Below are positions 4,541-41,120 of a stretch of DNA of 64,000 bases, one piece after another. The notes below the pieces were generated by a model. It ran no database searches. It had not been told where the DNA came from and saw nothing but the letters and a program-made list of their open reading frames with translations. The stretch is from an uncultured Clostridia bacterium (GTDB lineage Bacteria; Bacillota; Clostridia; TANB77; CAG-508), in the NCBI GenBank assembly GCA_934154805.1, contig CAKPGM010000005.1, positions 9,188 through 73,187 on the forward strand, written 5' to 3'. A program made the translations under genes and the position numbers. Positions within the stretch are counted from its first letter, which is position 1. The number at the start of each line of letters is the position of its first letter.

Positions 4541-5749
4541 TTATGATGGTTCCACATTTCCCATATTCACTATTCCTATATATTCTTTATTGTCTTTTAC
4601 TAGTATTATTGTTTGATCCGTGTATCCTAAAGAACCTCTTTTGCTTATCTGTTTGTCATATAATACTATATCGATCATTATCGTTTCAATATATGACGTG
4701 TTATTATTTTCATCTATTCTTATTTCAGATGTCACTTCTACTTTCTCATTATTATACATAATATATGCTTCTTCAAAGTTTGTATATTCATCTGTTATCT
4801 CAAATTTTAACATAATATATACATAACCATGTGAATCCTTTTCTCCTACTATTGTATACAATGGTAAACTCTTATCTATATTGGTTACTTCTACTTCTTT
4901 TGTATATATTTTTCCTGTTAGTATGTCTTGTACCTTGAATGTATATGTACCATTCTCTGTGGCTATATATCTGTTTGAAGTTTCATTGTCTGGGTTTGTT
5001 ATAGTATAACCTTCTATCATTTTAGTAGATTCGTTATAATAAAATTCAATAAGTATTTGACCTGTAATTCCATTTATTCCAAGTTCACTTGTTTCCACTG
5101 CCGTCCAAAAAGCATCTTCGGTCGCCTCATCTATCCATTGTTGGTTCTTTACCCATTCTACCGCCTCTTGAAATGTTGTGCAATTTGCTGATGGGTCTTG
5201 TTTATTCACTACCTTTATATACCCATTTCTAATTATCTCTTTCTTCTGGTTTTCACTTAGCAAATTTATAAAATTGCTAAGTTCTTCTTCATTTTTGATT
5301 GTTGGTATTGTAAGTCCCTCTACAGATTCAACTTTTAATATAACCACTCCTGATTTTTCTGTTGCTGGTGTTTTACTGATATTTATTTTTACATTTCCAT
5401 ATTCTATTTGTTTTAATATACTTCCGTCTCTTCTTTTTATTGTTATTATTTCGTTTTCTCTATCTATCTCGTCTTCGTTTAAAAGTTTTCTTGAAAGTAA
5501 ACTTTGTAATACAGCGTTTGCATTTTCTATGCTTTCCCCTGTTTCTGATTTTATAAAATTATTCTGTTTCCATAGTCCTATTTCATCTTCTACTTGTGAT
5601 GCCCTTGTTTCTAGTCTAGATTCTTTAGATTTTCCTATGATTCCATTATTGTCTAATACTAAACTTATACTCACTCCCACTAGTATTAAAAGTACTACTA
5701 TTGTTACTACCAGTGCTATTAAAGTTATTCCTTTTTTATTTTTTAACAT
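4541..5749 (-). CDS. Prepilin-like N-terminus protein with an unknown 360-aa C-terminal domain (locus 1 cargo)
   Basis: MLKNKKG|ITLIALVVTIVVLLILVGVSISLVLDNNGII matches the class III (prepilin) signal pattern G-[FI]-T-L-I-x, with Ala replacing Glu+5. GGAGG RBS is present. Confidence 0.75.
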   Translation of the reverse strand: MLKNKKGITLIALVVTIVVLLILVGVSISLVLDNNGIIGKSKESRLETRASQVEDEIGLWKQNNFIKSETGESIENANAVLQSLLSRKLLNEDEIDRENEIITIKRRDGSILKQIEYGNVKINISKTPATEKSGVVILKVESVEGLTIPTIKNEEELSNFINLLSENQKKEIIRNGYIKVVNKQDPSANCTTFQEAVEWVKNQQWIDEATEDAFWTAVETSELGINGITGQILIEFYYNESTKMIEGYTITNPDNETSNRYIATENGTYTFKVQDILTGKIYTKEVEVTNIDKSLPLYTIVGEKDSHGYVYIMLKFEITDEYTNFEEAYIMYNNEKVEVTSEIRIDENNNTSYIETIMIDIVLYDKQISKRGSLGYTDQTIILVKDNKEYIGIVNMGNVEPS

Positions 5750-5778
5750 AATTTTTCCTCCGTTTTATATATATTTTT

Positions 5779-5951
5779 ATTAAATATGTTATTTAATAAA
5801 AATATTTAATCTTTCAAGCAATCTTAATTCTAAGTTTAGATCATTTTCGGTATTTTTTATGTTTACAATTATTTGTTTTAATCTATTGACTTTTTTCCTA
5901 CAGTTGTGCTATATATAAAATAGTTAGTTTTAATTAAATAACATATTTAAT
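5779..5951 (+). promoter_or_regulatory. Invertible promoter cassette 1, with the promoter facing away from the 4541..5749 gene (OFF)
   Basis: Perfect 19-bp inverted pair ATTAAATATGTTATTTAAT (5779-5797) / ATTAAATAACATATTTAAT (5933-5951). Internal promoter TTGACT (5886-5891), N18, TGcTATATA (5907-5915) lies on the + strand. Confidence 0.7.
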
Positions 5952-6013
5952 TAAAAAATTATTTCTTCATATGTATACTAAGCCAAAATTTTATATTTTG
6001 GTTTCTTTTTTAT

Positions 6014-6042
6014 TTGACAAAAGTCGACATTCATTGTACAAT
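6014..6042 (+). promoter_or_regulatory. Sigma-A type promoter of the 6074..6925 gene
   Basis: TTGACA (6014-6019), N17, TACAAT (6037-6042). Confidence 0.6.
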
Positions 6043-6073: not shown

Positions 6074-6925
6074 ATGTTTGGACACAGAAGTGATGGTAGG
6101 AAATTAAAAACTCTTCCTCCATTTTTTAGAGTAATTCCTAGCGTAATGCTAGAAAGATCAGATGCACAAGTTTATTTTAAGCAAGACATCTCTCTTAAGA
6201 CTATAGATGATTACATCGACAAAAAAGCTGCAGAAGGAACTAAATTTTCTTATATGAATATAATTTATGCAGCATTAGTTAGAATTTTAGCTGAAAGACC
6301 TCAGTTAAATAGGTTTGCTATGAATGGCACCTTATATGCTAGAAATCAAATTCTAGTTTCTCTAGCTATTAAAAAAAGTCTTTCTGACGAAGGTACTGAA
6401 ACTACTATTAAAATGCCTTTTACAGGAACTGAAAACATTTTCGAAATAAAAGAAAAACTTGATAATGTTATAGAAAATAATAAAGATACGGGTACAGTTA
6501 ATAGTACTGACCGTCTTGCAAAAGCTTTAAGTTTAGTATCTAATGGTACTTTAAGAAGAGCTATTAAATTCTTAAGTTTCTTAGATAGACATGGTATAAT
6601 GCCTAAGGCAGTAATAAATGCTAGTCCCTTTCATACTAGCTTGTTCTTAACAAATGTTGGTTCTTTAGGAATTGATAGTGTTTATCATCATTTATATAAT
6701 TTTGGAACTACTAGCTTATTTTTTGCTATGGGTAAAAAGAAAAAGAGCTTTATCTATGACGATGACGAAATACACGAAGAAAAGTGTATCACTATTGCAT
6801 TTGTTGGAGATGAAAGAATTTGTGACGGTTATTATTTTGCAAACTCATTTAAGTTACTAAGTAAATATTTAAGAAAACCCGAGTTGCTAGAAGAACACGC
6901 ACAAGTAAAAGAAGATATAAAATAA
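6074..6925 (+). CDS. 2-oxoacid dehydrogenase E2-type acyltransferase catalytic-domain protein (stand-alone)
   Basis: C-terminal GDERICDGYYFANSF aligns with the E2 DHRxxDG active-site motif. Start moved to the ATG at 6074, which has an AAAGGGG RBS. Confidence 0.55.
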   Translation: MFGHRSDGRKLKTLPPFFRVIPSVMLERSDAQVYFKQDISLKTIDDYIDKKAAEGTKFSYMNIIYAALVRILAERPQLNRFAMNGTLYARNQILVSLAIKKSLSDEGTETTIKMPFTGTENIFEIKEKLDNVIENNKDTGTVNSTDRLAKALSLVSNGTLRRAIKFLSFLDRHGIMPKAVINASPFHTSLFLTNVGSLGIDSVYHHLYNFGTTSLFFAMGKKKKSFIYDDDEIHEEKCITIAFVGDERICDGYYFANSFKLLSKYLRKPELLEEHAQVKEDIK

Positions 6926-38747: not shown

Positions 38748-41087
38748 TTGAAAGTGGTGAAATTTTTGAAAGTAATAGATAAAATATTAAAAAAATTAAA
38801 AACTGATCGAAATACTTTTTTTACATATATACTCACTCTAATATCTGCTTATTTAGTTATAGATAGAGTAGTTGAAATGTTGATGATGATTTTTACAGGA
38901 ATGGCTTGTACTTATTGGGGACCAATAGGATATACTTTAGCTATTGCCTGTCCTGTGTTTGCATTCTTACTTTCATTCTCATCTAAGTATGCCGATTCAG
39001 ATGCAACAAAGTTAATACTATTTGATACCTATGTTATATGTGTATATATAATGGTAATATCAATGTTCACACAATTCTTTAATCAACTTGGTTGGATGTT
39101 ATTCTTATCAGTTCCAAATTTCACATATATAGCAGCTAACTTCTACACATTGATTAAACCAGCATTTTCAGCCTTAGCATTATACTTGCCTTTAACAACA
39201 TTCTATTTAGTAATCAACTTCTTAATTAAGCAAGTACATGATAACAGACAAATGCTTGAATCTATATACGAATATAAAGGAATTAGCCTTGCTGATAAAT
39301 CAGCATCTTGGGGAAATTATACTTGTGAATTATATTTCGGACTTGACAAACGTAATGGTACTAAGGTTAAGTTAGCAGAGGAAAAAAGATTCTACCCTAC
39401 TTTAATATGTGGTGTGTCTGGCTCTGGAAAAACTTCTCTTTTATTTGAACCTATGATTGCACAAGATTTAACTAGAAAATATTTCTTTAGAGAAATATCA
39501 AAAGAAATGGGATTCACAGCTTTAAAAACAGGAATAGCAACATTAACTTGTCCTTACACTAGTGAATATATAAATGCTAACTTTAATTTAAATATGATAA
39601 AACCAAAAGAAAATAAAGTTAATGTTTATAACACTTATATGCAAAAAATGATTATTGCCGGTTCAGGTGACAATTATGTTTATAAAAACTTAGGACTTAC
39701 TTATATGGCTCCTGACATTGAATCAATAAATCGTATAAAGAAAGTACTAAAAGCTCATAAGCTAAAAGCAAATATTATAGATCCTAACGACATAAATTCA
39801 ATCGGTTTAAATCCTTTTGTATTTGATGATCCAATTCAGACAGCTATTGCAATATCAACCGTCTTAAAAGGGTTATATGCTTCAAGCAATCCTGATATGA
39901 CATTAGCTTATAGAGAAAATGCAGCAAATCAAGCTGTCGAAAACTTAGCAATATTGCTAAAAGAAATGTATCCAAGATTACACAATGATGATTTACCTAC
40001 TCTAGAAGATTTACTAAATTGCTTAACAAATTTCGATTTAGTAGTTAATTTATGTGAAGAATTAAAACAAGACCCAGAGCTTAATACTAAATATTCAGCA
40101 TTAGTAAGTTATATTGAAAGAAACTTTTATCCAAATGCTCCTAGCAGAAACGATATGGAGAAATTTGTAACACATGCAACAGCTCAATTAGATAGTTTAT
40201 TAAGATATTCTGGTGTTAAGAACATCCTATGCAATAGAATAAACACAATTAATTTTGATAAAGCATTATCAAACGGAGAACTTACTCTAATTTGTACAAG
40301 ACGTGGAGATTTAGGACCAAATATTCATCAAGCATTCGGTTTATTCTGTATTCTTATGATGGAATATTCAGTACTAAGAAGACCTGGAACAGAAAAAGAT
40401 AGGATTCCACACTTCTTATACATTGACGAATTCTCAGATTTTGTAGGAGACGCTACAGACCCATTATTTACAATATATAGAAAATATAAGGTTTCAACAG
40501 TTGTTTCTGTTCAAAACTTAGCTCAATTAGATGGTGCAGATAAAAAACACAGATCAACAATAGTTTCTAACTGTTCTAATAAATTCGTATTTGGTAACAA
40601 CTCTCCAGAAGACAACGAATGGTGGTCTAAAGAAATTGGTGAAGAAAAGAGATGGCAATTTGGTAATAGTTATGATACAGCAAAAGGAGAATACGAGTCA
40701 AAGCTATCTGGAATCAAATATGGACCTGAAATAAGATATAAACCAGGAAAAATACAAGCACTTAAATTTAAACAAGGTTTCTACAAGCTAAAAAATATAG
40801 GTGGTAAGTTTGATAATGGTATTGTTATATTAGATTTCTTATCAGCAAAATATTCAGAGGATAAACCTGTTAAGTTTTATGATTTTGATAAATATAATTC
40901 AGGTACACCTTATACTCCTGAAGAATCAGTTAATAAGAAGCAAAAAAATAATTTAAAACATTATCATTTTGATGACAATGTTGAAGATGAAATTGATCCA
41001 ATTAATACAGATACAACAGATTCAAAATATCTATTTGATAATGAAGATGCAATCGTAATCAATTTAAAGAAACAAAACAAACAATAA
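38748..41087 (+). CDS. VirD4/TraG/TraD-like coupling-protein-type ATPase with an N-terminal multi-TM domain
   Basis: About 5 TM helices, Walker A GVSGSGKTS, Walker B FLYIDEFSDF and VVSVQNLAQLDG...VSNCSNKFVFG C-terminal block. The start (TTG at 38748 or TTG at 38766) is uncertain. Confidence 0.6.
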   Translation: MKVVKFLKVIDKILKKLKTDRNTFFTYILTLISAYLVIDRVVEMLMMIFTGMACTYWGPIGYTLAIACPVFAFLLSFSSKYADSDATKLILFDTYVICVYIMVISMFTQFFNQLGWMLFLSVPNFTYIAANFYTLIKPAFSALALYLPLTTFYLVINFLIKQVHDNRQMLESIYEYKGISLADKSASWGNYTCELYFGLDKRNGTKVKLAEEKRFYPTLICGVSGSGKTSLLFEPMIAQDLTRKYFFREISKEMGFTALKTGIATLTCPYTSEYINANFNLNMIKPKENKVNVYNTYMQKMIIAGSGDNYVYKNLGLTYMAPDIESINRIKKVLKAHKLKANIIDPNDINSIGLNPFVFDDPIQTAIAISTVLKGLYASSNPDMTLAYRENAANQAVENLAILLKEMYPRLHNDDLPTLEDLLNCLTNFDLVVNLCEELKQDPELNTKYSALVSYIERNFYPNAPSRNDMEKFVTHATAQLDSLLRYSGVKNILCNRINTINFDKALSNGELTLICTRRGDLGPNIHQAFGLFCILMMEYSVLRRPGTEKDRIPHFLYIDEFSDFVGDATDPLFTIYRKYKVSTVVSVQNLAQLDGADKKHRSTIVSNCSNKFVFGNNSPEDNEWWSKEIGEEKRWQFGNSYDTAKGEYESKLSGIKYGPEIRYKPGKIQALKFKQGFYKLKNIGGKFDNGIVILDFLSAKYSEDKPVKFYDFDKYNSGTPYTPEESVNKKQKNNLKHYHFDDNVEDEIDPINTDTTDSKYLFDNEDAIVINLKKQNKQ

Positions 41088-41090
41088 TAA

Positions 41091-41120
41091 AAAAATTCCC
41101 CCTTAAAAGGGGAATTTTTT
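41091..41120. terminator. Bidirectional terminator between convergent genes
   Basis: AAAAAATTCCCCTT aaaa GGGGAATTTTTTT. Confidence 0.75.

Follow-up and report, generated by a model that had tools for sequence, protein, structure and literature searches.

Cassette 1, at positions 5779-5951 of the window (the whole stretch of 64,000 nucleotides that was analysed, with a G+C content of about 28%), inverts in nature, and the asymmetric centres of its two arms are strictly matched. Its centre, ATGTT/AACAT, is not private to it. The centre is the class mark of a cassette subfamily, present in at least two copies in the strain and in three copies in the reference metagenome-assembled genome (MAG), which corrects an earlier reading made from the sequence alone (the sequence-only reading), in which ATGTT was a private lock. 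In our preferred explanation, which as a whole (a multi-copy family, a tyrosine recombinase and a class-marking centre) is given a probability of roughly 0.7, cassette 1 would be one copy of a multi-copy set of ~174-bp invertible promoters (invertons) in a host related to 'Clostridium sp. CAG:780'. The palindromic half-sites would bind the recombinase, and the asymmetric centre would give the site its polarity, as an overlap in which both partners must have the same sequence. The 135-bp interior would be flipped by a recombinase whose gene is outside the window, most likely a tyrosine recombinase of ~305 aa, and the promoter would thereby be directed to or from the gene of a surface protein that has a prepilin-like N-terminus. 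As a by-product, ATGTT would bar recombination between cassette 1 and ATATA cassettes, while recombination with other ATGTT cassettes would stay open to it.

Structure of cassette 1 and of the neighbouring cassettes

The perfect 19-bp pair with an ATGTT/AACAT centre that had been described at cassette 1 was confirmed by direct reading and by a repeat finder. The gene-proximal arm (5779-5797) is ATTAAATATGTTATTTAAT, which is ATTAAAT-ATGTT-ATTTAAT, and the gene-distal arm (5933-5951) is its exact reverse complement, ATTAAATAACATATTTAAT, which is ATTAAAT-AACAT-ATTTAAT. Each arm consists of two inverted 7-bp half-sites (ATTAAAT and ATTTAAT) around an asymmetric 5-nt centre, located at 5786-5790 in the gene-proximal arm and at 5940-5944 in the gene-distal arm. 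The conserved site at the gene-proximal arm reaches 5775-5801 (TTTT...AAAA). As a matter of sequence architecture only, a site of this type can also be read as 6+7+6 (ATTAAA-T[N5]A-TTTAAT). The arms enclose an invertible interior of 135 bp (5798-5932), the promoter-proximal half of which is conserved in the ATGTT subfamily, while the promoter-distal half is variable and mosaic between strains. In most cassettes, a TCTAA/TCTAG motif is present ~48 nt inside the promoter-distal arm (window 5829-5833, for example), at a fixed distance from the arm and in sequence that otherwise varies freely among cassettes; an accessory factor may act at this motif.

The interior harbours a putative promoter at 5886-5915 (+), with the sequence that had been described (TTGACT-N18-TGcTATATA): a -35 element TTGACT at 5886-5891, an 18-nt spacer, TGC at 5907-5909 and a -10 element TATATA at 5910-5915. 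A consensus promoter scanner made no call at this TTGACT-N18-TGC-TATATA sequence, because the final base of the -10 element is A. The block is designated a promoter on two grounds, its resemblance to the consensus and its strong conservation across cassettes. In the alignment, a TTGAYT-N17/18-TGC-TATAWA block is present in every cassette, the version in cassettes 2 to 4 being TTGATT-N17-TGC-TATAAA, and the window cassettes have an interior block in common, TATTGA(C/T)T...TACAG.T.TGCTATA, which is on the + strand in cassettes 1 to 3 and on the - strand in cassette 4.

The gene that cassette 1 would control (4541-5749, -) is the sole adjacent gene that starts at the cassette; its start is 30 nt outside the arm and it is preceded by a ribosome-binding site, GGAGG, at 5757-5761. 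The 402-aa product has a prepilin-like N-terminus (MLKNKKG/ITLIALVVTIVVLLIL), beyond which no domain was recognised; an exact-protein look-up returned no match for it, and comparison with PDB and NCBIfam gave no informative match. As the promoter of cassette 1 is on the + strand and is directed away from this minus-strand gene, the cassette is OFF in the window, in agreement with the sequence-only reading. In this orientation the promoter faces a 10-bp hairpin and its trailing U-run (5980-6011, +), with a folding energy of -8.4 kcal/mol and a z score of -2.7. A terminator scan did not call this hairpin because its stem has too few G-C pairs; judging from its structure, it would halt transcripts of the OFF-oriented promoter ahead of the next gene. 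That gene (6074-6925, +; 283 aa) has its own promoter, TTGACA-N17-TACAAT, at 6014-6042 and is outside the control of cassette 1. A search of the window against Rfam detected a single tRNA and nothing else.

Eight matches to ATTAAAT-N5-ATTTAAT with at most one mismatch were found in the window, against 0.84 expected, and none of 100 shuffles reached eight. The matches form four pairs of arms 154-155 bp apart, which are cassettes 1 to 4. Cassette 2 (16389-16561; promoter +, OFF) is upstream of gene 14933-16234 (-), cassette 3 (50048-50220; promoter +, OFF) is upstream of a BspA-type LRR gene, 48110-50017 (-), and cassette 4 (59205-59378; promoter -, ON) is upstream of an operon led by 58056-59126 (-). 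The claim that these three have one common centre, ATATA/TATAT, distinct from that of cassette 1, was borne out; the outer half of the gene-distal arm of cassette 3 has one mismatch (ATTCAAT). The genes behind all four cassettes are on the minus strand, and a prepilin-like segment (...KKG/ITLIALVVTIVVLLILAG...) opens their products.

A fifth cassette is located ~3.24-3.41 kb past window position 64000, at 394-568 of contig L177. Over 4832 bp this contig matches window 59169-64000 with 100.000% identity, and it then runs on to the cassette, which is OFF and has an ATGTT/AACAT centre (ATTAAATATGTTATTTAAT ... ATTAAATAACATATTTATT). It is ~61 kb from cassette 1 and upstream of two DUF285 genes with prepilin-like starts. 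Its gene-proximal arm has one mismatch (ATTTATT). In the window strain, cassettes 1, 2 and 3 and the fifth cassette are accordingly OFF, and cassette 4 is ON. Sister strains have a sixth cassette ~280 nt to the left of window position 1 (L011 3594-3778, and likewise in L012-L014), with a Big_2 gene downstream of it. One of its arms is degenerate and unmatched (ATTAAAAAATATATATTTAAT vs ATTAAATTATATATTTAAT), it was ON in all four assemblies, and it is possibly a locked switch.

Other features of these loci were also observed. In the leaders between cassette and gene of cassettes 2 and 4, a near-consensus TTGAWT-N17-TATAAT sequence is present at 16343-16371 (-) and 59160-59188 (-), overlapping the palindrome AAAACATATTGTTTT; it was also found at many sister loci. 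This leader sequence is absent at cassettes 1 and 3 in the window strain and present at the cassette 1 locus of L012-type strains. If it is an active promoter at cassettes 2 and 4, the ON/OFF reading for these two loci would be weakened. The 5' leader of the cassette 2 gene (16235-16320, -) has three in-frame stops compared with intact paralogues (MAKEIIKSLKETKERGKR, stop, E, stop, IRY, stop, KVKSGITLIAL...), which leaves a GTG start just ahead of the prepilin-like segment; cassette 2 was OFF in all assemblies seen. Across L001-L020, the cassette-plus-gene modules of cassettes 1 to 4 vary by strain and the housekeeping surroundings stay in place: the cassette 2 module is missing in L015, and the modules of cassettes 3 and 4 are missing in L006 (GCA_964311525.1). 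At cassette 1, the gene behind the cassette encodes the 402-aa pilin-like protein, an LRR_5 protein of 384 or 380 aa, or a 487-aa protein, depending on the strain (L001-L020). Elsewhere in the window, a TraG/TraD-type coupling-protein gene (38748-41087, +) adjoins a gene with a Replic_Relax domain (41120-42058, -), among ribosomal and pseudouridine-synthase genes. This pair was present in all sister contigs and therefore does not have the look of a recent mobile insertion.

Inversion at the cassette 1 locus

Sister loci were taken from human-gut metagenome contigs of the same species, which were 95-100% identical in shared DNA, and the orthologous cassette 1 loci were located with conserved neighbours, including the 283-aa gene at 6074-6925, as anchors. 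The centre was ATGTT/AACAT in all 10 other assemblies. The cassette was OFF in six of these (L012, L014, L016, L018, L019 and L020) and ON in four (L011, L013, L015 and L017), with the promoter block facing the gene. The interior in L011 is the exact inverse of the window interior, apart from one SNP. Given both orientations at one locus, cassette 1 is a working switch, as established by comparison between assemblies, and its description as an invertible cassette was thus upheld.

Other cassettes were also seen in both states: cassette 3 was ON in L007 and OFF in L001, L002 and the window, and cassette 4 was ON in the window and in L177 and OFF in L042. Four contigs end exactly at an arm (L007, L009, L178 and L179, the last two beginning at the arm of the fifth cassette), and contig breaks of this kind are the usual sign of mixed orientations within a sample. 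The differences between assemblies, together with these contig breaks, suggest that switching also occurs within one population.

The base at ±10 was used as a marker of exchange. OFF cassettes have palindromic arms ([T..A]/[A..T]), and the ON forms of cassettes 3 and 4 have the hybrid arms that are expected for an exchange inside the 19 bp, with unchanged outer flanks. The crossover is therefore located within the 19-bp site. At the four ON loci of cassette 1, unlike the OFF loci, the gene-proximal arm has ATTCAAT as its inner half-site, and the 25 nt outside the gene-distal arm also differ, with agreement between ON and OFF loci again over the following 370 nt. A simple inversion does not account for these differences in the half-site base and in the outer 25 nt. 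The ATTCAAT half-site is common in related cassettes, and so it need not lock the switch.

Centre classes, candidate recombinase and competing explanations

One genome per species was scanned with a paired-arm pattern in which the centre was left free, and 28 matches were obtained. Two of these, in a Buchnera genome and a Lachnospiraceae MAG, had unmatched centres and lacked the promoter block, and were set aside as chance matches. Of the 26 real cassettes, 21 were in MAG CAVFFR01, a conspecific reference (mislabelled Bacteroidaceae) whose conserved genes are 92-96% identical to those of the window; the others were in Clostridium sp. CAG:780, in CAG:793 (L048) and in two Clostridia MAGs. Seven centre types were present (ATATA in 13 cassettes, ATGTT, AAGTA and ATGTA in 3 each, ATACT in 2, and ATGCA and AAATA in 1 each), and the centres of the two arms were reverse-complementary in 26/26. 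A metagenome scan for ATGTT arms gave mostly chance single matches; 15 real cassettes were recovered, none of which was an orthologue of cassette 1, and ATTGAAT/ATTCAAT was seen among these metagenome cassettes to be a tolerated half-site variant. In the whole data set, all 52 distinct window-type cassettes had matched centres and constant half-sites. At least six changes of centre type were counted, each on both arms, and there were no half-changed cassettes among the 52. Tabulated by position, the 102 arms vary only from -1 to +2 (A-W-R-Y-W), and the TTT...AAA flanks are invariant out to ±13, although they were outside the search pattern. The core site of the family is TTTW-ATTRAAT-[A W R Y W]-ATTYAAT-WAAA. 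The centre-to-centre spacing is 154-156 bp in 49/52 cassettes, for a cassette length of ~174 bp.

The 5-nt centre thus acts as though a match between the two arms were required, across seven types and with half-sites held constant. Constant half-sites, matched variable centres and hybrid arms fit a core site made of binding element, overlap and binding element, and on this sequence pattern the centre is very likely the strand-exchange (overlap) region, identical in both partners. For Cre, Flp and lambda Int, identity of the spacer is needed for exchange. The matching centres could instead be kept by concerted evolution and not by a strict mechanistic need.

No recombinase was detected by a Pfam scan of the window ORFs of at least 120 aa. 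When all cassette-bearing loci were screened with regular expressions for tyrosine and serine recombinase motifs, only L024, from a goat Clostridia MAG, gave matches, all to tyrosine recombinases. One of them, of 311 aa (PF00589 and PF14659), is 2.5 kb from a cassette and scores far below the Xer cut-offs. It belongs to a family of ~305-aa proteins with 50-69% identity that is abundant in gut metagenomes. Another member, P0086, from a species with 26% G+C, is encoded 0.6-2.6 kb from two cassettes in L169-L172. The sites linked to P0086 (ATTAAG-CTAGAAA-CTTAAT and ATTAAG-CTGAAAA-CTTAAT) have the same 6+7+6 design, and in this species as well the two arms of a cassette have matching centres, which are not the same from one cassette to the other. 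This sister site, ATTAAG-N7-CTTAAT, suggests that the window site may be read in the same way, with a 7-bp overlap and with exact cleavage positions that are putative; enzymes of the lambda Int type use a 7-bp overlap. At L169 11536-11697, a cassette is located between two divergent genes, each with a ribosome-binding site directly outside an arm, and the recombinase gene is ~0.6 kb away; from this arrangement, the promoter may toggle between the two genes. A third member, CCY99525.1, is encoded by Clostridium sp. CAG:793, which carries the window-type cassette L048. In three further species with the recombinase family, no cassette was found within 10 kb. An orthologue in the window species was not found through the contexts of P0086, P0043, P0039, P0075 and their cluster members; the looked-up contexts were all from other species, with at most 78% nucleotide identity in the shared gene, and cassettes were present beside P0086 only. 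For this reason, the assignment of the ~305-aa tyrosine recombinase family as the enzyme that flips the cassettes is tentative, the link being proximity in two lineages only.

According to the sequence-only reading, ATGTT was locus-specific; in the strong form considered here, it would have been selected so that cassette 1 inverts alone and never recombines elsewhere, which would protect tens of kilobases of chromosome from inversion or deletion. This is consistent with the presence of ATGTT at cassette 1 only within the window, and with its retention at this locus in the 10 other assemblies despite the differing downstream gene. The same strain, however, has a second ATGTT cassette ~61 kb away (L177), and CAVFFR01 has three (L025, L030 and L038), so that the centre is private only within the window, and the reading in its original form is refuted. 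Moreover, the interiors of cassette 1 in L013, L015 and L017 are mosaic: the promoter-distal half is 92-93% identical to the ATGTT cassette of L177/L038/L106 and only ~67% identical to cassette 1 of the window, and the promoter-proximal half matches L025 and L030 at 97% identity. Cassette 1 is therefore not isolated, having traded sequence with other cassettes of its class. As ATGTT recurs in the strain, and as ATATA is common to 13/26 scan cassettes, including the adjacent cassettes 2 to 4, avoidance of cross-talk is at most a side effect of the centre, and its selection as a private lock is highly improbable. Two contigs that span cassettes 1 to 3 are collinear with the window although ATATA is common to cassettes 2 to 4, and hence something other than private centres keeps recombination local. 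Among the loci in hand, no hybrid junction was found that joins the flanks of cassette 1 to those of another cassette. In CAVFFR01, three contigs (L027, L029 and L035) have an identical cassette and gene-side flank and different far flanks, and contig ends are present 69 nt outside the cassette; paralogy, a mixture of strains or a rearrangement between cassettes could each account for this.

It might also be argued that the centre has no gating role at all, that heterology is tolerated, that the arms are kept alike by inversion, heteroduplex repair or gene conversion together with duplication, and that locality is due to geometry or accessory proteins. The ATGTT cassettes do form a sequence subfamily by descent, with a TTGACT -35 element, an extra T in the spacer (18 nt) and shared blocks flanking the promoter; the 154-156 bp spacing in 49/52 cassettes points to a geometric constraint, and the cassettes that share ATATA have left the chromosome unscrambled in the contigs seen. 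Nevertheless, the absence of half-changed forms after at least six centre changes, the same rule in the L169 sister system with its different site, the single orientation, in 4/4 assemblies, of the damaged cassette with unmatched arms (L011 3594-3778) and the general tyrosine-recombinase rule of overlap identity known from lambda Int, Cre and Flp all argue against this possibility, which we regard as unlikely. If the invertase were instead a serine recombinase (Hin/Gin/Mpi type), cleavage would fall on a 2-bp core at the centre, and the difference between ATGTT and ATATA would act through the core dinucleotide. Multi-locus promoter inversion by one enzyme is known for Mpi of Bacteroides fragilis, the 12-bp conserved half-sites make the site about as long as hix or gix, and neither recombinase type has been tied to the window species. 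The site, however, has an odd number of bases and a dyad centred on a base, with four variable central positions instead of two; the features of hix- or gix-type sites (even length, a 2-bp core at the dyad and a Resolvase-family enzyme) were not seen in the window or the cassette-bearing loci, where no Resolvase-family gene was found, and the recombinases beside cassettes are of the tyrosine type only. A serine invertase thus seems very unlikely. Finally, the centre classes might correspond to different recombinase paralogues or switching rates, with ATGTT marking a separately regulated group of genes. The distinct promoter variant of the ATGTT cassettes, with its 18-nt spacer, would be compatible with this, as would the finding, for the flagellar switch of C. 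difficile, that single-base changes in the inverted repeat alter switching (PMC12282940). Yet the half-sites and the flanks out to ±13 are identical in all classes, which argues for one binding specificity, and the genes downstream of ATGTT cassettes belong to several families (pilin-like without other domain, LRR_5 and DUF285); we give this explanation little credence.

In the preferred explanation of a class-marking centre, the ATGTT site would have no productive exchange with the ATATA sites of cassettes 2 to 4, according to the homology rule of tyrosine recombinases, and we infer that heterology of the centre blocks exchange between classes in the same way. The near-fixed spacing of 154-156 bp suggests a geometric requirement that would keep recombination local. 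A wider version is possible but speculative, and we would sooner doubt it than rely on it: one tyrosine recombinase would serve at least 20 invertons per genome, at least seven heterospecific centre classes would act as compatibility groups, and the spacing would be a second, geometric filter. If so, sequence exchange and long-range recombination would be confined within a class, and the spacing would block chromosome rearrangement even between cassettes of the same class. The mosaic of cassette 1 with other ATGTT cassettes hints at such groups.

Significance and comparison with known systems

The cassettes represent an extensive inverton family, not described before, from an uncultured lineage of gut Clostridia, with four copies in 64 kb, a fifth past the right edge of the window, a sixth past the left edge in sister strains, and at least 21 in CAVFFR01. 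The exact site sequences of the family were not found in the searchable literature. The surface proteins that the family would switch have prepilin-like N-termini and form a repertoire that includes BspA-type LRR, DUF285 and Big_2 proteins; a system of this sort is likely to shape interactions with the host, phages and the immune system. With constant binding elements and seven co-varying centres, it provides a natural test set for the overlap-homology rule, and the series of cassettes bears on the question of how numerous identical sites for recombination can be tolerated in one genome.

In gut Bacteroidota, Akkermansia and some Firmicutes, inverton groups have been described whose members share a repeat motif and an internal promoter motif and are linked to an invertase (PMC11892184). 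The multi-locus promoters of gut Bacteroides, such as the B. fragilis promoters of capsule and surface-protein genes under the recombinases Mpi or Tsr, resemble the present cassettes in consisting of many short promoter segments with shared repeat and promoter motifs, sited before surface-structure genes, with most copies OFF and an invertase that acts in trans, as it would here. The cassette family differs from them in phylum, site and promoter, in that each arm is a complete palindromic core site, the variable centre of which belongs to one of several classes, in the near-fixed 154-156 bp spacing and in the genes with prepilin-like N-termini.

The RecV switches of C. difficile (cwpV, flgB and cmrRST) are also found in a Firmicutes host as short segments upstream of surface or motility genes, and are served, as the present cassettes probably are, by a tyrosine recombinase encoded away from most of the switches, with switching that is sensitive to the inverted-repeat sequence. 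In C. difficile, however, the repeats are dissimilar from locus to locus and some switches act through terminators, whereas here at least 20 near-identical cassettes have one site. The fimS element of E. coli, with FimB and FimE, is similar in having, on a short invertible segment with inverted repeats at its ends, a promoter the direction of which sets the ON or OFF state, and in its use of tyrosine recombinases, the probable type here, but it is a single 314-bp locus with 9-bp repeats and adjacent recombinase genes, whereas the present cassettes are multi-copy with none adjacent.

The closest counterparts of the centre classes are lox511, lox2272, the FRT variants F3 and F5, and the overlap rule of lambda Int. 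In these also, inverted binding elements surround an asymmetric spacer, and sites with identical spacers recombine while those with different spacers do not, so that the centre classes look like natural counterparts. The lox and FRT variants are engineered, with 8-bp spacers; in the cassettes, a variable core of 4-5 nt would form part of a 7-bp overlap, the classes extend beyond single loci, and their incompatibility is what we infer from the rule. The cassette family is therefore of a kind that is already known, that of multi-locus invertons, and what is particular to it is the uniform cassette, the complete palindromic core sites and the natural centre classes.
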